A DNA stretch of 64,000 bases from Clostridia bacterium (GTDB lineage Bacteria > Bacillota > Clostridia > UMGS1883 > UMGS1540): positions 853 through 64,852 of the forward strand of contig JAZNHR010000003.1 in NCBI GenBank assembly GCA_045577075.1, given 5' to 3'. How positions within the stretch are numbered: the stretch's first letter is position 1; each line of letters begins with the position of its first letter. This document shows, piece after piece, positions 7,435 to 42,309 of the stretch. The notes under the pieces were generated by a model, which saw only the letters and a list, made by a program, of their open reading frames with translations, was not told the DNA's origin and did no database searches. A program made the translations under genes and the position numbers.

Positions 7435-10400
7435 ACCGAATCACCTTTGTATTCATTCCGGATGTCATTCAGCTGCATGGTAAGCAGCTTTGAGACGCCT
7501 TTTTCCTGCATGGTTACCCCGTAAAGCACGTCTGCCGCTTCCATGGTGCCGCGGCGGTGGGTAACAATAATAAACTGTGTATCTGCGTAGTCACGCAGAT
7601 AGGATGCAAAGCGGTCAATGTTATGGTCATCAAGGGCGGATTCAATTTCGTCCAGGATACAAAACGGTGCCGGCCGCACGCGTAGCACAGAGAACAAAAT
7701 TGCAATGGCGGTAAGGGCTTTTTCACCGCCGGATAAGAGAGAGAGATTTTGCAGCTTTTTGCCCGGAGGCTGTACATCAATTTCAATACCGCTTTCCAGC
7801 ACATTTTCAGGGTCTGTGAGTGTAAGGCGACCTGTGCCGCCGCCAAAGAGGGCGCGGAAGGTGCCTTCGAAGTGCGCCGCAATTTCCTGAAATCTTTCGG
7901 CGAAGGTTTCCGTCATTACCTTCGTCATGTCTGTAATAATTTTGTTTAGCTCTGCTATGGCCTTTTCCAAATCTTCGATTTGCTTTGTCAAAAATGCATG
8001 CCGCTGCTTCACCTCTGCATATTCATTTACGGCATCCACATTGACGCTTCCAAGGCTGCGGATTGCACGGCGAAGTCGCACCGCTTCCTCTTTGGCAGTG
8101 CCGATGGGGCCGATATCCGCCACAAATGCGGCGGCACCGGAATAGGTCAGCTCATAAGCGTCCCAAAGATGGTTTACGGTTGCATCCAAATCGTTTTGCG
8201 TTTTCTCAAGACGAGCCTCAAGCCTCGTCTTTTCTCCTTGCAGGGCGTAAAGCTTTTCGTTTTGGGTCTGCAAATCCGTACGCATCTTGGACGCGGCAGC
8301 ATCTGCGCTCGTTTTTTCTTGGCCCATTTTCTCCAGCATTTCCCGGAATTCCTGTACCCGCTTTTGCCCTTCCGCAATATCCAGAAGACGGTTTGCGTGG
8401 CGCAGGCGAAGGTCCTCGGCACTTTGAAGTGCTTGTACCTTCTGTGCTTCTCGGTTTGCAATTTCGAGCTCCAGCTTTTGTATGGAGAGAAGCGTTTGTT
8501 CCCGTCTTGCACGGGCAGCATCCAAATCTTTTTCCGCAGAATTTACCGCGACCTGTAGCTGTGCCAAAGCGTCGCGCTGGCGGCTTTGGTCTTCCATATA
8601 TGCATGTAAAAGTGCACGCGCCTCCTCTGTACGAAGGGTGGATTCCTGATGGCGCGCACGAAGGTCAGCCTCTGCATTTTGCAGGCGCTCCCGTTCCTTA
8701 TCCGCGTTTTCCAGTTGCAGTTCAGCACTTGCAAGGTCAGCTTGCAGACGGGTAAGGTGTGCCTCTTCGTTTTCGCGCGCGGAATTTTGCAGCTGCATAT
8801 TGCCGTTGCACTGCATAAATTCCGTTTTTTTCTGCATGTGTGCATTGCGGAGTGATTCCAACTGTTCCGTAAGGGAGGCAACATCGTCCGTCTTTTTATC
8901 AATCTGTGTTTCCGCCTTCTCCATTTTGACGGAAAGTGCCTTGCATTCTTTCTCAAGGGTCGCAATCTCTTCGCTTCTGCCGAGGAGATTTGCATTTCCG
9001 ACGCGGCTGCCGCCGGACATGGAACCGCCGCGCAGCAGCACCTCGCCGTCTGTGGTGACAATTTTAAACTGGTGAGAAAATTTTCTGGCGGCACCAATGG
9101 CATGGTCAATGTTGTCCATGACTACCGTTTGCCCCAGAAGCTGTAGAATAATATCTTTGTATGCCTTGTCGCATTTTACGAGGTCACATCCAAGACCAAT
9201 AAAGCCGGGACAGGCAGAAACCTTCCCCTCATTTTGCAGGCGCGTGCCCTTTACTGCCGAAATGGGCAGAAAAGTAGCACGGCCGGCGTGGTTTTGCTTT
9301 AGGAAGGCTATCGCCGTCTTGGCGTCCTCTTCGCTTCCCACAACGATATTCTGCAGGGAAGCGCCAAGTGCCGTTTCAATGGCGGTAATATAAGGAGAGT
9401 CCACCTGAATAAGCTGGGAAAGCACGCCCCGAATATCAGCCGAAAGACGGGCCGAAAGGATTGCCCGAACGCCCCTGCCGTAGCCCTCCATGTTTTGCTC
9501 CATATCGGAAAGGGCATTTTTTCTAGACAGGCGCTGGTTATATACACGCATAAGCTCGTTAAAGCCGGTTTTGTCATTTGCCAGGTCTGTTTGCAACTGC
9601 GTCCGCTTTTCCAAAAGGGTACGGAAGGATTCTTCTGCCGCCTTAATCTCGGCAGAAAGTGTTTCCTGTCTTTCCCGAAGGGCTTTCGTTTCTTTCACAA
9701 TGTCCGAAATTCTTTGCTCGCTCGTTGTAATTTCTGCAGAAAGCTCTGCAATTCTTGCGTTTAAATCGTAGCCGGACAGGGCGTCGATATGCTTTGCCGT
9801 CTCGTCCGCCTGGGTGAGAAGCTGCATAGAGGCGGCGGCAAGGTTTTCCGCAATCCCCGTTTGGGTACGAATGGCATCTGCCGCATCTTCCAATTTGATT
9901 TTCCCCGTTTCTACGGCTTTTTCAGCCTCGGAAAGGGCGGCGTGGCAGCTTGCAATGTGTGCCTCGGCTTCTTCTGCGGCGCTTATTAGGCCGGAGATTT
10001 CTTCTTCCAACGCCTTCTTTTGCGCCTCAAAATTTTCTGCAGCTTTCAGTTCTGTTTCTATGCGCTGGGAGAGAAGGGCATTGTCGCCTTCCCAGCCTTT
10101 TACGGAAAGGTCGGTACTGTGCATAAGAGAGCGGAGTGCTTCCATTTCCGCATCCCGGGTTTTCATTGTCCCGTATAAGGATTCTTCCTCTTTTTGCATA
10201 GTTTCAAGCTTCGCTGATTCTGTTTCCAGTTGTTCGGAGACTTGTGAAAATAAAGCGGAGGCTTCTTCTTGTGTTTTTCGAAGCTTATCAATATCTAAAA
10301 TAGAGAGGTTAATTTCCAAAACCTTTAGTTTTTCGTATAAGTCCAAATATTCCCGTGCCTTTTTTGCCTGATTTTCCAGCGGCCCGAGACGGGATGCAAG

Positions 10401-10991
10401 CTCGCCAGCGATATCGCGGACACGCGCGAGGTTTTCTTCTGTGGTAGCAAGCTTTCTTGCTGCCTCGTTTTTCTTGTACTTATATTTGGAAATACCGGCG
10501 GCTTCCTCAAAAATCTGGCGTCTGTCCTCGGATTTCTGGGAAAGGACGGAATCAATCTGCCCCTGGCTGATAATGGAATAGCCGTCCCTGCCAAGACCCG
10601 TATCCATGAAAAGCTCATGGATATCGCGAAGGCGGCAGGGCGTTTTATTTAAAAAGTATTCGCTTTCGCCGCTGCGGTATACGCGGCGTGTAACGGTGAT
10701 TTCCGTATACGGACTTGAAAAAAGCCCGGAAGTATTGTCGAGAATCAAAGAAACCTCGGCAAAGCTTACGGGTTTATGCTTGGCGGTACCGGCAAAAATG
10801 ACGTCCTCCATGCGGCTGCCGCGGAGAGATTTTACGCTCTGTTCCCCCAGCACCCAGCGAATGGCGTCCGTAATATTACTTTTGCCGCTGCCGTTTGGAC
10901 CGACAATGGCGGTGATGGCATAGTCAAAAGACACGCTAAGCCTATCCATAAAGGATTTAAAGCCATACATATCCAGTCTTTTTAAATACAT
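7431..10991 (-). CDS. smc: chromosome segregation protein SMC
   Basis: 1186 aa; N-terminal Walker A GPNGSGKSN, long coiled coils, hinge, C-terminal signature LSGGEK and Walker B ILDEIESALD. Confidence 0.95.
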   Translation of the reverse strand: MYLKRLDMYGFKSFMDRLSVSFDYAITAIVGPNGSGKSNITDAIRWVLGEQSVKSLRGSRMEDVIFAGTAKHKPVSFAEVSLILDNTSGLFSSPYTEITVTRRVYRSGESEYFLNKTPCRLRDIHELFMDTGLGRDGYSIISQGQIDSVLSQKSEDRRQIFEEAAGISKYKYKKNEAARKLATTEENLARVRDIAGELASRLGPLENQAKKAREYLDLYEKLKVLEINLSILDIDKLRKTQEEASALFSQVSEQLETESAKLETMQKEEESLYGTMKTRDAEMEALRSLMHSTDLSVKGWEGDNALLSQRIETELKAAENFEAQKKALEEEISGLISAAEEAEAHIASCHAALSEAEKAVETGKIKLEDAADAIRTQTGIAENLAAASMQLLTQADETAKHIDALSGYDLNARIAELSAEITTSEQRISDIVKETKALRERQETLSAEIKAAEESFRTLLEKRTQLQTDLANDKTGFNELMRVYNQRLSRKNALSDMEQNMEGYGRGVRAILSARLSADIRGVLSQLIQVDSPYITAIETALGASLQNIVVGSEEDAKTAIAFLKQNHAGRATFLPISAVKGTRLQNEGKVSACPGFIGLGCDLVKCDKAYKDIILQLLGQTVVMDNIDHAIGAARKFSHQFKIVTTDGEVLLRGGSMSGGSRVGNANLLGRSEEIATLEKECKALSVKMEKAETQIDKKTDDVASLTEQLESLRNAHMQKKTEFMQCNGNMQLQNSARENEEAHLTRLQADLASAELQLENADKERERLQNAEADLRARHQESTLRTEEARALLHAYMEDQSRQRDALAQLQVAVNSAEKDLDAARARREQTLLSIQKLELEIANREAQKVQALQSAEDLRLRHANRLLDIAEGQKRVQEFREMLEKMGQEKTSADAAASKMRTDLQTQNEKLYALQGEKTRLEARLEKTQNDLDATVNHLWDAYELTYSGAAAFVADIGPIGTAKEEAVRLRRAIRSLGSVNVDAVNEYAEVKQRHAFLTKQIEDLEKAIAELNKIITDMTKVMTETFAERFQEIAAHFEGTFRALFGGGTGRLTLTDPENVLESGIEIDVQPPGKKLQNLSLLSGGEKALTAIAILFSVLRVRPAPFCILDEIESALDDHNIDRFASYLRDYADTQFIIVTHRRGTMEAADVLYGVTMQEKGVSKLLTMQLNDIRNEYKGDSV

Positions 10992-16562: not shown

Positions 16563-16635
16563 AATAGGCAGGTCTTATTTTTACCCCTCTGCATCCCTGC
16601 GGTGTACGTCTTGTATGGTATATATTTTAGCCAAC

Positions 16636-16830
16636 ACTAAAATGTAAGGGAGACAGACCGTCTTTGTGGTGTGTAGGCCCCCCGCTCGTAAGACCGGTAT
16701 GAGGGTAACCCGTAAGCAAAGAATATGTCGCCCACCTGCAAAGCAGGTTAAAATTTTACTGCCGGACGGCAATCGCGGGGAATGGTAAGCAAGACGGGGC
16801 GCTGCAACGTGTGCAGCGACCCCGCTTTTT
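16636..16830 (+). promoter_or_regulatory. candidate structured 5' leader (riboswitch/attenuator-like, class not assigned) ending in intrinsic terminator
   Basis: about 200 nt ORF-free, GC-rich with multiple local hairpins (CCTGC-AAA-GCAGG etc.), strong terminator GGGGCGCTGCA..TGCAGCGACCCCGCTTTTT at 16794-16830, about 90 nt before the membrane-protein ATG. Confidence 0.35.
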
Positions 16831-40334: not shown

Positions 40335-40380
40335 TGCCCCGAAAGAAAGACGCATTTCTCTTTCTCTCGGGGTTATGCTT
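40335..40380 (+). terminator. imperfect intrinsic terminator after polC
   Basis: CCCCGAAAGAAAGA..TCTCTTTCTCTCGGGG then TTATGCTTT. Confidence 0.5.
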
Positions 40381-40415
40381 TGGTGCACCATGCGGAAAAA
40401 TTTTTCAAAAAAGTC

Positions 40416-40444
40416 TTGACAATATGCCGCGTTTGTAGTATACT
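40416..40444 (+). promoter_or_regulatory. consensus sigma-A promoter (TTGACA-17-TATACT) of tRNA-Ser
   Basis: perfect -35, 17-nt spacer, near-consensus -10, 13 nt upstream of tRNA 5' end. Confidence 0.75.
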
Positions 40445-40457
40445 ATGAAGGTCGCGT

Positions 40458-40549
40458 GGAGAGATGGCTGAGCTGGTCTAAGGCGCACGACTGGAAATCG
40501 TGTATGGGCTAATACCCCATCAAGGGTTCGAATCCCTTTCTCTCCGCCA
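40458..40549 (+). tRNA. tRNA-Ser (anticodon GGA), class II with long variable arm, encoded CCA
   Basis: 7-bp acceptor GGAGAGA/TCTCTCC, anticodon stem-loop CACGA-CTGGAAA-TCGTG, variable arm ATGGGCTAATACCCCAT, T-loop GGGTTCGAATCCC, GCCA 3' end. Confidence 0.93.
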
Positions 40550-40551
40550 CG

Positions 40552-40581
40552 AAAAAAGCACCCCAAAAGGGTGCTTTTTTC
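40552..40581 (+). terminator. intrinsic terminator after tRNA-Ser (AGCACCC-CAAAA-GGGTGCT + T6)
   Basis: sequence. Confidence 0.85.
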
Positions 40582-40598
40582 TTTGCGGAGAGAAAGAA
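40567..40598 (+). repeat. direct repeat unit 1 (AAAGGGTGCTTTTTTCTTTGCGGAGAGAAAGAA) containing inverted copy of tRNA-Ser 3' acceptor end
   Basis: GCGGAGAGAAAG (40585-40596) is the reverse complement of tRNA 3' CTTTCTCTCCGC; unit repeated at 40764-40795. Confidence 0.7.
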
Positions 40599-40763
40599 TA
40601 GGATGCGAACTTTCGCCAAAGGCGAAGGTTCGTCGAAGCAGCCAAAGCGCGAAGCGATTTGGACTGCGGAGTCGGGAGCACCGCCGTCTGCCGGGCACCG
40701 CCGAGGGCGGTCGGCAAGACGGAGAGGCGCACCGTATCCCTTTACGACAAAGGAGCACCTCAA

Positions 40764-40795
40764 AAGGGTGCTTTTTTTGTGGCGGAGAGAAAGAA
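40764..40795 (+). repeat. direct repeat unit 2 (AAAGGGTGCTTTTTTTGTGGCGGAGAGAAAGAA)
   Basis: 29/32 identical to unit 1; 197 nt apart. Confidence 0.7.
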
Positions 40796-40933
40796 CGTCG
40801 GAGTGACCGCAAGGGAAGCTTGCGGATCACGGAGTCGGGAGTACGTATTCTATTTCGGGCACCGCTTTGCGGTCGAAAAAACTATATCTTACCTAAAAAG
40901 AATATGCATCATATATACGATGTATCTTCTTTT

Positions 40934-41146
40934 TTATCTTGGATTCATTTCATCTGTCCTGCCTAAAATATAATCAACTGAGGTTTTATATAAATCTGCA
41001 AGTTGTATCAGCATGGAAACCGGTATTTCACGCAATCCTCTTTCATATCTTGCATAAACTTGTCTGTTACACAAAAGATAATCGGCAACTTGCTTTTGCG
41101 TTAAGTCATGATCTGTTCGCAAATCATATAATCTTTTAAAAAACAT
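40934..41146 (-). CDS. XRE-family (Cro/CI-type) helix-turn-helix transcriptional regulator
   Basis: 70 aa; LTQKQVADYL..NRQVYARYERG HTH_3 signature; AT-rich context. Confidence 0.8.
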   Translation of the reverse strand: MFFKRLYDLRTDHDLTQKQVADYLLCNRQVYARYERGLREIPVSMLIQLADLYKTSVDYILGRTDEMNPR

Positions 41147-41245
41147 TAAAAATCACCTCTTGATTTTAATGTTACCATATGGTATTATAATATTAACAAT
41201 ATGGTATCGTTTGATACCTTAATTATATTTTTTAGGAGAGAAAAT

Positions 41246-41479
41246 ATGAATATAAAGCTTGAACTATTAAGAAACTACATAGTTGACTTAATAAAATACA
41301 GAATAGAAGAGCTTGACATTGATGCATCGCAAATTGCTGATACTACTGCTATTCAAATGTTGTCTGAGATACAAAAAGTAATAAAGGACGAAGAATATTC
41401 CGATTTTGATGCTGTGGAGAAAATAGTTTGCATATTTGAAAACTATAATATCGACTTTGGCTCTCGGCATGATTTTTAA
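41246..41479 (+). CDS. small hypothetical protein (divergent from XRE gene), low-GC
   Basis: 78 aa from MNIKLEL; GGAGAG RBS; codon usage AT-rich. Confidence 0.45.
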   Translation: MNIKLELLRNYIVDLIKYRIEELDIDASQIADTTAIQMLSEIQKVIKDEEYSDFDAVEKIVCIFENYNIDFGSRHDF

Positions 41480-41516
41480 TATTTTATAAAAAGGCATCTA
41501 TCCCTTCTAATCTTTC

Positions 41517-41548
41517 ACGAAAAAAGCACCCCCCCGGGGGTGCTTTTC
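41517..41548. terminator. bidirectional intrinsic terminator (GCACCCC..GGGGTGC) between small gene and AraC gene
   Basis: AAAAAAGCACCCCCCCGGGGGTGCTTTTC. Confidence 0.75.
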
Positions 41549-42309
41549 TAATTCCTCGCATACTGAGTCGGTGAAACACCGTATTTCTTTTTAAAGGCAC
41601 GGCTGAAATATAAGGAGTCGTTATATCCGACGGAGGTGGCAATTTCCGTAATCGTATCAAATTCACCGCTATCCATAATTGTTTTGGCATGAGAAAGACG
41701 TTTCCCTAAAATATAGTTTTGTGGACTCATAGCATAATGGGCCTGAAAGAGTTTACGAAAATATGTGCCGGAAATGCCGCAAAGCCTATGTAAGGTTTCG
41801 ATTTTCAGGTCAGCGTCAAAAATATGCTTTTTCAAATAGGAAACGGCAGGGGAAATGACGCTGAAATTCTTTTTATCGGCATAGGTTAAGCTTTCCAGGT
41901 TTTCAATATAGGCTAAAAGGGCGTAAAAAATGGAATAGCATTTATACTGCTCGGCAGTACCGCCAAATTTCCATAAATCGGCTAAAATGCCTTCGTACGT
42001 ATCTGCCTCCTGAAACCCGTCCAATGCATAGACGGCAGGGACTGCGTTCGTTATTTCTGCCTCGAAAATGATGGAGACATACATACATGGCGTATTAGAA
42101 AGGGTGGCCATTTCATAGCTTGCCCCTTGCGGCAGAAAAAGGATTTCGCCGGGATGGGTATCTATGCAATGCGCAGAAAAGGTATGCCGGGATACGCCCG
42201 CGGTGCGAAGCACGAAGGCGTGGTTTTTTCGGCATACAACCGACGCTCGGTTTTTTGAAGTCCCCTTTGTAATTCGTATGATTTTTAAGTTTTCTATATT
42301 TTTAAACAT
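41548..42309 (-). CDS. AraC-family transcriptional regulator
   Basis: 253 aa; cupin-like N-term, C-terminal HTH_AraC (..YFSRAFKKKYGVSPTQY). Confidence 0.85.
   Translation of the reverse strand: MFKNIENLKIIRITKGTSKNRASVVCRKNHAFVLRTAGVSRHTFSAHCIDTHPGEILFLPQGASYEMATLSNTPCMYVSIIFEAEITNAVPAVYALDGFQEADTYEGILADLWKFGGTAEQYKCYSIFYALLAYIENLESLTYADKKNFSVISPAVSYLKKHIFDADLKIETLHRLCGISGTYFRKLFQAHYAMSPQNYILGKRLSHAKTIMDSGEFDTITEIATSVGYNDSLYFSRAFKKKYGVSPTQYARN

Follow-up and report, generated by a model that had tools for sequence, protein, structure and literature searches.

A candidate RtT-like tandem repeat array with an unusually long palindrome downstream of a Clostridia tRNA-Ser(GGA) gene

The closest described counterparts of the locus reported here are the RtT tandem repeats that lie distal to tRNA genes of Escherichia coli, such as tyrT and serX. 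RtT is known from Gammaproteobacteria, and the tyrT repeats were reportedly first described and sequenced by Egan and Landy in 1978. The Rfam family RF00391 (RtT) is defined on the 178-nucleotide (nt) repeats of tyrT. The rtT RNA, which was described in 1991 by Bosl and Kersten as cited in a later paper (PMC3318445), is reported to be freed from the tyrT transcript, with related RNAs lying beside other tRNA genes (PMC4986893, PMC3318445, bioRxiv 10.1101/2024.07.17.603846); in Pasteurellaceae, RtT-family RNAs were seen on Northern blots (PMC4986893). Here we analyzed a 64,000-nt stretch of DNA (the window) from a Clostridia-class metagenome-assembled genome (MAG; GenBank GCA_045577075.1, contig JAZNHR010000003.1, positions 853 to 64,852 of the forward strand), in which a tRNA-Ser(GGA) gene is followed by direct and inverted copies of its own 3' end. 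From sequence comparison, we give roughly even chances to the interpretation that positions 40529-40900 form an RtT-like, tRNA-distal tandem repeat array with an unusually long palindrome and a possible third remnant at 41495-41550. The array is filed here as RtT-like and not as a demonstrated RtT member. The structure itself is real, non-random and recurrent.

The serX locus, which holds the orthologous tRNA gene of E. coli K-12 (NC_000913.3, approximately 1096961-1097583; locus L098, 662-1284) was found to carry 3.4 copies of a 181-nt unit at 99% identity. Each unit begins with the tRNA 3' end from T-loop to CCA, followed by a terminator hairpin and a short mirror (reverse-complement) copy of the T-stem and acceptor, GGGGGGAT. 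It continues with GATGAGAAG-CCCC-GACC-GGGGTTCGAC, which corresponds to a mirror T-arm, a tetraloop and a direct T-arm half, and then with a GC-rich stretch ending in GCGAGCGAAGCGAG. Two of the serX units, used as a positive control, scored 46.3 bits on RF00391 compared to a gathering score of 45. These units are labeled 'RtT sRNA' by PGAP in other E. coli records, and the MG1655 RefSeq record has no feature for them. Among the matches listed (40 of 5,453 records), the distance between ycdU and serX was 378, 559, 740 or 921 nt (0.4 to 3.4 units); serX units were shown in this way to be gained or lost one whole unit at a time. The 178-nt units distal to tyrV, which carry rttR and tpr, follow the same plan as those at serX, and the short mirror block was found to fit its own tRNA at each E. 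coli locus (GGGGAAGGAT for the tRNA-Tyr of tyrV, and the block given above for serX). In another part of the E. coli K-12 chromosome, between clpA and serW, two CRISPR-DR4-type matches were observed (locus L096, 354-381 and 414-441; one at 50.1 bits compared to a gathering score of 35), which probably correspond to the degenerate CRISPR remnant known from between clpA and infA.

The window array lies on the strand of the tRNA gene and is laid out as S-T-S'-X, where S is the direct tRNA 3' end, T a terminator, S' a mirror of the tRNA 3' end and X a GC-rich spacer (Table 1). Unit 1 starts within the tRNA at 40529, and the array extends to approximately 40900 as two units of approximately 204 and 165 nt, with a period of 197-204 nt and then approximately 165 nt. 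A first reading of this DNA, made from the letters alone (hereafter the sequence-only reading), had claimed that GCGGAGAGAAAG (40585-40596) exactly reverse-complements the acceptor strand and could extend the acceptor and terminator region into a palindrome of roughly 60 nt. Both claims held: the block is the exact reverse complement of 40536-40547, and the palindrome spans 61 nt, with 26 pairs between arms of 28 nt each (40536-40563 and 40569-40596). Further out in the first mirror arm, GGATGCGAAC was found to be a decayed mirror of the T-loop and T-stem. As DNA, the S-T1-S'1 palindrome folds at -29.1 kcal/mol (z -9.3). When the 30-nt pattern was scored against shuffled sequence, 3 occurrences were found in the window versus 0.00 expected, which confirms that the palindrome and its repetition are not due to chance. 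Similarly, the mirror 12-mer (with at most one mismatch) occurred 4 times versus 0.38 expected, and three of these four occurrences were at the tRNA-Ser locus. No copy of S' was detected elsewhere in the 64-kb window. The only part of the array to recur in the window was the 13-nt terminator arm AAAAAAGCACCCC, at 41520 and 44674. The possibility that the units belong to a generic terminator family, which had been raised along with the first observation, was not borne out: within the 64 kb, neither the mirror block nor the spacer motifs had further copies such as a dispersed repetitive extragenic palindrome, a miniature inverted-repeat transposable element or a terminator family might provide.

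The first terminator, T1, has a stem of 12 bp when its A/U runs are counted, followed by U6, and low read-through is therefore expected; its symmetry suggests that it can act in both directions. When the read-through transcript was folded, the mirror arm was found to pair with the 3' strand of the acceptor and the cloverleaf was abolished. Pairing of S'1 thus breaks the acceptor stem in read-through RNA, which argues against a processing aid. The sequence-only reading had offered a scar of serial integration or excision, a small structured RNA, or a 3'-processing or stability element as explanations; what stood of these is that the element is tied to the tRNA 3' end and is repeated, and the fold of the read-through RNA weighs against a role as processing aid.

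A 32-nt unit had been reported to recur 197 nt downstream (40764-40795, 29 of 32 positions identical). This repeat was found as described, and as part of a longer direct repeat of 47 nt (40552-40598 compared to 40749-40795) that covers the terminator and mirror block at 87% identity, 197 nt apart. The tRNA-derived start of unit 2, CGTATCCCTTT, stands in register before T2 and the 9-nt acceptor strand CTCTCCGCC is deleted between them, such that the direct copy in unit 2 is reduced to CGTATCCCTTT plus the terminator. The second mirror arm, together with its spacer, matches the mirror of 40536-40563 at 27 of 28 positions. By itself, the second palindrome is degenerate (DNA fold of -8.7 kcal/mol, z -1.1), and unit 2 looks partly decayed in this genome, with its pairing partner lost. 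The segment between the repeats proved to be GC-rich, with the hairpins named in the sequence-only reading and the repeated motif CGGAGTCGGGAG. In X1, AGGATGCGAACTTTCGCCAAAGG...GGTTCG reads as a mirror T-arm, a loop and a direct T-arm half, and AAGCGCGAAGCGA is also present. The motifs CGGAGTCGGGAG, CGGGCACCGC and GCGGTCG follow one another at 40667, 40692 and 40707 in X1 and, in the same order, at 40830, 40856 and 40869 in X2. The X2 hairpin ACCGC-TTT-GCGGT resembles ACCGCC-GAG-GGCGGT of X1, with differences in loop and stem length. At the sequence level, X1 and X2 are homologous.

Downstream of unit 2, the order of the locus continues with an AT-rich islet and then a further S-T, such that the whole reads as (S-T-S'-X) twice, islet, S-T. 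Within this last, possible third copy, CACGAAAAAAGCACCCC is a 17-nt exact match to 40548-40564. The segment abuts the stop of a convergent AraC-family gene and doubles as the terminator of that gene; its assignment as a third copy is uncertain because a similar terminator follows the AraC orthologue in a relative (L092) that has no tRNA there. Copies of the tRNA end, as examined for an att duplication, are thus located at 40529, 40733 and 41495, the last two being partial. The statement of the sequence-only reading that the copies are inverted and not direct was correct for the mirror arms and not for the remainder, as the downstream blocks are direct repeats of each other and direct partial copies of the tRNA end are present. 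An att-like layout is therefore not dismissible on the basis of orientation.

Several other identities for the locus were considered and rejected. An inverted tRNA pseudogene did not fit, as X past the T-arm is unlike the reverse complement of the tRNA body and promoter and unlike the direct tRNA. A second tRNA was detected at the locus neither by ARAGORN nor by Rfam. A minus-strand RNA with a tRNA-like 3' end is at odds with the finding that proper U-runs occur on the plus strand only at most loci. The open reading frames (ORFs) over the array (40571-40966 on the plus strand and 40405-40830 on the minus strand; 131 and 141 amino acids) cross the tRNA and both terminators, and a protein-coding gene was rejected. 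The spacers X matched no Rfam family (at gathering threshold or E<=10 in the window, and at E<=0.1 in six related loci).

Table 1. Positions of the tRNA-Ser(GGA) gene, the repeat units and neighboring features in the window.
Feature	Position	Strand	Description
polC, end of gene	40331		followed by its own terminator at 40337-40372
tRNA promoter	40416-40444	+	sigma-70-type; TTGACA, 17 nt, TATACT; 11/12 consensus positions matched
tRNA-Ser(GGA)	40458-40549	+	CCA encoded; ARAGORN; Rfam tRNA 57.2 bits
S	40529-40549	+	master copy of the repeats; last 21 nt of tRNA-Ser(GGA), T-loop C56 to CCA
Terminator T1	40552-40580	+	intrinsic; A6-GCACCC-CAAAA-GGGTGC-T6
S'1	40585-40610	+	mirror of tRNA 3' end; exact GCGGAGAGAAAG, 4-nt insertion, then GGATGCGAAC
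Spacer X1	40597-40732	+	59% GC, three hairpins
Direct partial copy of tRNA 3' end	40733-40743	+	CGTATCCCTTT, corresponding to C56-T66, 10/11; start of unit 2
Terminator T2	40749-40779	+	copy of T1; good T7 run on plus strand only
S'2	40780-40793	+	TGGCGGAGAGAAAG; mirrors the final 14 nt of the tRNA exactly, CCA included
Spacer X2	40794-40885	+	blockwise homology to X1
AT-rich islet	40934-41479		30% GC (genome 48%); between unit 2 and the possible third copy
XRE-type helix-turn-helix gene	40934-41146	-	in AT-rich islet
Orphan 92-aa ORF	41201-41479	+	in AT-rich islet; divergent to the XRE gene
Possible third degenerate copy of tRNA end and terminator	41495-41550	+	TATCCCTT..CACGAAAAAAGCACCCC..GGGGGTGCTTTT

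To determine how widely this arrangement recurs, metagenome contigs were scanned for a pattern of a tRNA-Ser 3' end, 20-50 nt, and a mirror acceptor. Six contigs from at least three distant lineages were recovered, all with the pattern behind tRNA-Ser(GGA). Three of these are Clostridia-like (L085, L086 and L090), with tRNAs near-identical to that of the window, two derive from one gammaproteobacterium (L087 and L088) and one from a high-GC organism (L089). In all six, the mirror covers the acceptor, the CCA and the non-tRNA spacer. The spacer after the CCA differs by locus (CATACGAAAC, CGCAAT, TGCA and TACATAAAA) and is complementary within each locus. All of the loci fold into a long stem at the base and a GC hairpin at the apex, with a bulge of 4-7 nt on the 3' side (DNA folds of -25 to -44 kcal/mol, z -7 to -13), and in three lineages the bulge is the T-run of the terminator. 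When eight palindromes were analyzed by RNAalifold, 26 pairs were obtained, 9 of which had changed on both sides. L090 has two tandem units as in the window, which differ from each other by one compensatory spacer pair. In L089 the tRNA end recurs 163 nt downstream as a direct copy that is perfect over 19 nt and begins at C56 of the T-loop. Direct S copies start at this same nucleotide in the window, L087 and L089. The unit length is 162-167 nt in three lineages versus 204 nt in the window. A sequence of the form GAGCG(N)AGCGAG was observed at a similar place in the spacer of L087 (3960-3990), L090 (5108-5125) and the E. coli serX units (L098). A mirror copy was absent at nine other tRNA genes in the examined loci (eight non-Ser and one tRNA-Ser(CGA)), and arms of up to 18-23 nt were found for the ordinary bidirectional terminators that occur within 1.04 Mb of related DNA.

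The gammaproteobacterial locus L087 could be compared to an orthologous locus, L093, in which the order HemC, tRNA-Ser(GGA) and bioA is common and BioA is 84% identical. A gene for the small bacterial signal recognition particle RNA adjoins this cluster in both (L087, 5224-5320; L093, 1308-1404), and the two loci are thereby confirmed as orthologous. The flanking intergenic DNA was unalignable on both sides, and the terminator, S' and much of X aligned. The first spacer pair is T-A in one locus and C-G in the other. The tRNA T-stem is CCCTT in one and CCCTC in the other, and S' carries the matching difference (GAGAAAGG versus GAGAGAC); between the two loci, no difference is seen in the distant direct copy. 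Read from these alignments, the mirror arm appears to be kept in step with the tRNA, either by copying or by selection.

The RtT precedent at tyrT and serX was not named in the sequence-only reading; it joins elements of two of the options offered there, the integration scar and the small structured RNA. Like the E. coli repeats, the units of the window follow a tRNA gene immediately on its 3' side, share its strand and are arranged in tandem, with lengths of approximately 160-200 nt. Each E. coli unit has a direct copy of the tRNA 3' end from T-loop to CCA; such copies are clean in L089 and L090, and in the window the second copy is partial and the possible third weak. As at serX, the copies of the tRNA 3' end are each succeeded by a terminator hairpin. 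Next comes a mirror fragment that fits its own tRNA and leads to what reads as a T-arm mirror, a short loop and half a T-arm in direct orientation, and the GC-rich hairpin region carries GCGAAGCG-type motifs. The mirror fragment can pair with the direct copy, as does the closing stem of the Rfam model; S'1 and S'2 are longer than their E. coli counterparts. When the window was searched with the 5' block of the RtT consensus (core GGAUGAGAAcCUUCGaccaAGGUuCGA), the top match was AGGATGCGAACTTTCGCCAAAGG, directly after S'1, at 19 of 23 positions, with the next-best window site 2 points lower. In the literature, nothing specific was found on an inverted tRNA 3' end after a terminator.

A number of findings weigh against placing the array with RtT. 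The match to the RtT 5' block exceeds background only by a narrow margin, and that to the 3' block does not stand out. RF00391 gave no hit on the window at E<=10 in searches of 701 and 221 nt and no hit at E<=0.1 on L085-L093, and an nhmmer profile built from the E. coli tyrT and serX units gave no significant hit on the window or on L085-L093. With no match to the RtT covariance model, membership of the array is unproven. The long S-T-S' palindrome is itself a difference: in the window, the mirror reaches the acceptor end, CCA and spacer, abuts the terminator and forms a 61-nt palindrome, whereas the E. coli mirror is 8-10 nt long, lies at least 17 nt from the terminator and lacks the acceptor end and CCA. 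In addition, the host of the window is a Clostridia-class MAG, and unit 2 lacks the acceptor part of the direct copy. X is unalignable across lineages, apart from a 14-nt identity between L087 and L090 (z 6.5, 50 comparisons) and a 33-nt block between L086 and L090. With T1 a strong terminator, little X RNA is to be expected. The change in unit number is known from E. coli serX. Finally, the direct copies from C56 and the AT-rich genes bracketed by S-T copies are left unexplained by an RtT-like array. On the other side, the near-constant unit length and the 14-nt spacer identity between a gammaproteobacterial and a Clostridia-like locus are unexplained hints of common descent.

If the array is RtT-like, its unit would have been put together from the tRNA's own 3' terminus, as a direct S, terminator T, mirror S' and GC-rich spacer X. 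Slippage or unequal recombination, acting from one direct S-T copy to another, would produce units and alter their number. Fold-back template switching may make and homogenize the mirror arm where the terminator hairpin ends a heavily transcribed gene; the tRNA arm would be selectively frozen and the mirror arm would follow it. Alternatively, selection on the hairpin may hold the mirror arm. Template switching is known to create, extend and homogenize hairpin arms, notably in highly transcribed DNA (PMC8794818, PMC8604942, PMC3820800). Transcription would reach the spacers only on read-through of T1 and, if rtT RNA is a guide, enzymes of tRNA processing would trim the product.

The host and its relatives were compared for the region surrounding the array. 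The nearest PolC sequences are from Oscillospiraceae/Clostridia MAGs, at 91% identity or less, and no record was found in which the exact PolC, AraC and XRE proteins of the window are encoded. The PolC relatives that were compared are 76-90% identical and the AraC relatives 70-83%. Synteny breaks at the 3' end of polC (L001, L002 and L081-L084): six upstream genes are kept in all, and the downstream neighbor is variable, with nothing recognizable, a tRNA-Thr(GGT), rplS or an LprI gene after polC. In L082, the tRNA-Thr(GGT) is at the corresponding place, and its promoter shares TTGACAA...TATACTATGAAGGT with the tRNA-Ser promoter of the window. Of the AraC relatives, L091 ends 198 nt past the gene and L092 has another neighbor. 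No empty site was found among the PolC and AraC relatives, none of which shares the junction of tRNA and array. In the closest relative by full-length PolC (L081, 90%), the contig was observed to end 260 nt after polC in a GC-rich, hairpin-laden stretch (10300-10475), which may be an assembly break at a repeat. Within the window, the span from the array to the possible third copy encodes the XRE regulator and the orphan ORF, with AraC, MATE, PurC and housekeeping genes as neighbors. The 92-aa product of the orphan ORF had no Pfam or PHROG match, and the pair may be toxin-antitoxin-like or a mobile-element remnant. The gene calls from polC to 54.5 kb include neither an integrase nor any other recombinase. 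A prophage or plasmid origin was rejected, as BLAST of 40440-41560 against phage and plasmid records matched the tRNA part only; pattern scans of 2.9 million viral contigs gave zero matches. Further upstream, a full-length 6S (SsrS) RNA gene was detected at 16591-16785 on the plus strand (85.1 bits on RF00013).

The unexplained C56 copies and the AT-rich genes bracketed by S-T keep an origin as integration scars alive, including one with a folded-hairpin attachment site. We regard this origin as rather unlikely. By this account, remnants of small integrative or cis-mobilisable elements would have accreted at the T-loop of the tRNA, each bringing a tRNA 3' end and a terminator, and S-T-S' would be the attachment site, possibly as a folded single-strand hairpin like integron attC or CTX-phage attP. 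The order of palindrome and X twice, foreign-looking AT-rich genes, and then S-T with no mirror is the one expected from serial insertion into the tRNA copy; direct S copies begin at C56 in three of the loci, the 19-nt identity of L089 ends where the CCA meets a different flank, and the region after polC differs in every relative (tRNA-Thr, rplS, LprI or AraC-like). The near-constant unit length of 162-167 nt in three distant lineages is also in its favor. Tandem accretion of att-flanked remnants is documented (PMC5704250, PMC3146451), and the window resembles such remnants (cis-mobilizable elements, or CIMEs, and island accretion) in its direct tRNA 3' copies from the T-loop, the foreign-looking DNA between them and the hypervariable locus. 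It differs from them, however, in having no integrase in the interval searched, in units of 160-200 nt with the terminator duplicated in each, and in the mirror copy, which is not a product of att duplication; units of 162-204 nt are far below the size of any known integrative element. Also against integration are the absence of the pattern from viral contigs and the match of phage and plasmid records to the tRNA alone, a terminator and spacer that are lineage-specific with vertical inheritance at one gammaproteobacterial locus, the resemblance of the terminal S-T copy to the native AraC terminator of the relative with no tRNA, and the E. coli units, which change in number by whole repeats without any element. 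With attC and CTX-phage attP(+), the likeness is in form only: the palindromes are imperfect, vary in the middle, keep their outer boxes and have bulges on one arm, arrays are formed of palindrome and short cassette, and an inverted site lies beside a hybrid junction. By contrast, the window has neither an integron integrase nor the RYYYAAC/GTTRRRY box pair, and the R''/R' boxes are absent; an integron attC was rejected, as the stem bases read as GTTCGAA/TTCGAAC-type T-loop sequence and not as these boxes. We know of no single-stranded replicon that would use the palindrome of the window as a site.

An RtT-like array was also weighed against a purely mutational by-product unrelated to RtT, in which a fold-back template switch at the terminator hairpin was followed by local duplication and in which nothing but ordinary intergenic DNA makes up the spacers. 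The terminator loop is the exact axis of the mirror, the copied tract takes in the CCA and non-tRNA spacer, the arms are perfectly complementary close to the apex and increasingly less so further out, into the T-arm, and only the non-essential arm changes, following the tRNA. The mechanism is documented (PMC8794818, PMC3820800, PMC8604942, PMC13100816), and ordinary bidirectional terminators already reach the arm lengths of 18-23 nt noted above. Quasipalindromes formed by template switching are similar to the palindrome of the window in that arm is copied from arm, compensatory changes arise in a single step, growth is outward from a seed hairpin and the DNA is highly transcribed; however, template switching is a mutational process and not an element family, and it leaves unaccounted for the direct copies from C56, a unit length that is nearly constant and the presence of tandem arrays in two lineages. 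Nor does the by-product reading explain why T-S'-X is better conserved than both intergenic flanks between L087 and L093, or why the core of mirror T-arm, loop and direct T-arm half is common with E. coli RtT. The nine other tRNA genes noted above are, in addition, without a mirror copy. An origin by mutation alone is, in our estimate, unlikely. Less probable still, and in our view very unlikely, is a functional, transcribed trailer element of the tRNA 3' end, be it a processing stalk for RNase III, a switch with S' alternating between the tRNA end and the downstream S as partners, or an RNA that mimics a tRNA end. Such a function would fit the long stem with compensatory changes, the conservation of X above that of its flanks in one orthologous pair, the ability of S', X and the next S to close into a multi-branch structure as in the Rfam RtT model, and the detection of RtT-family RNAs in Pasteurellaceae on Northern blots (PMC4986893). 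S' is located past the U-run, however, and would be absent from terminated transcripts, and in read-through RNA the stem destroys the acceptor helix. The z-scores of S'-X-S folds are weak in most lineages (-1.3 to -3.0 compared to shuffled sequence), single-nucleotide polymorphisms in X between L087 and L088 do not preserve the hairpins, unit 2 of the window has no pairing partner, and no Rfam hit was obtained.

If the window array is of the RtT kind, such repeats would be no peculiarity of enterobacteria; they would be a recurring feature of tRNA 3' ends, found in Firmicutes, in Gammaproteobacteria and in a lineage of high GC, with tRNA-Ser(GGA) as a favored site. A palindrome that tracks the substitutions of its tRNA would then provide a handle on concerted evolution by template switching versus selection on a hairpin. 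It is conceivable, although we consider it improbable, that RtT-like units are phylum-spanning modules templated by the resident tRNA 3' end, in which the S-terminator-S' hairpin is selected either as a folded recombination site, for cassettes of 160-200 nt at the T-loop of tRNA-Ser(GGA), or as the stem of an RNA that mimics a tRNA end. Were this so, the constant unit length and the GAGCG(N)AGCGAG motif would reflect common descent and function and not coincidence. In practical terms, arrays of this type break assemblies, inflate ORF calls and can mimic att sites to island-finding software.

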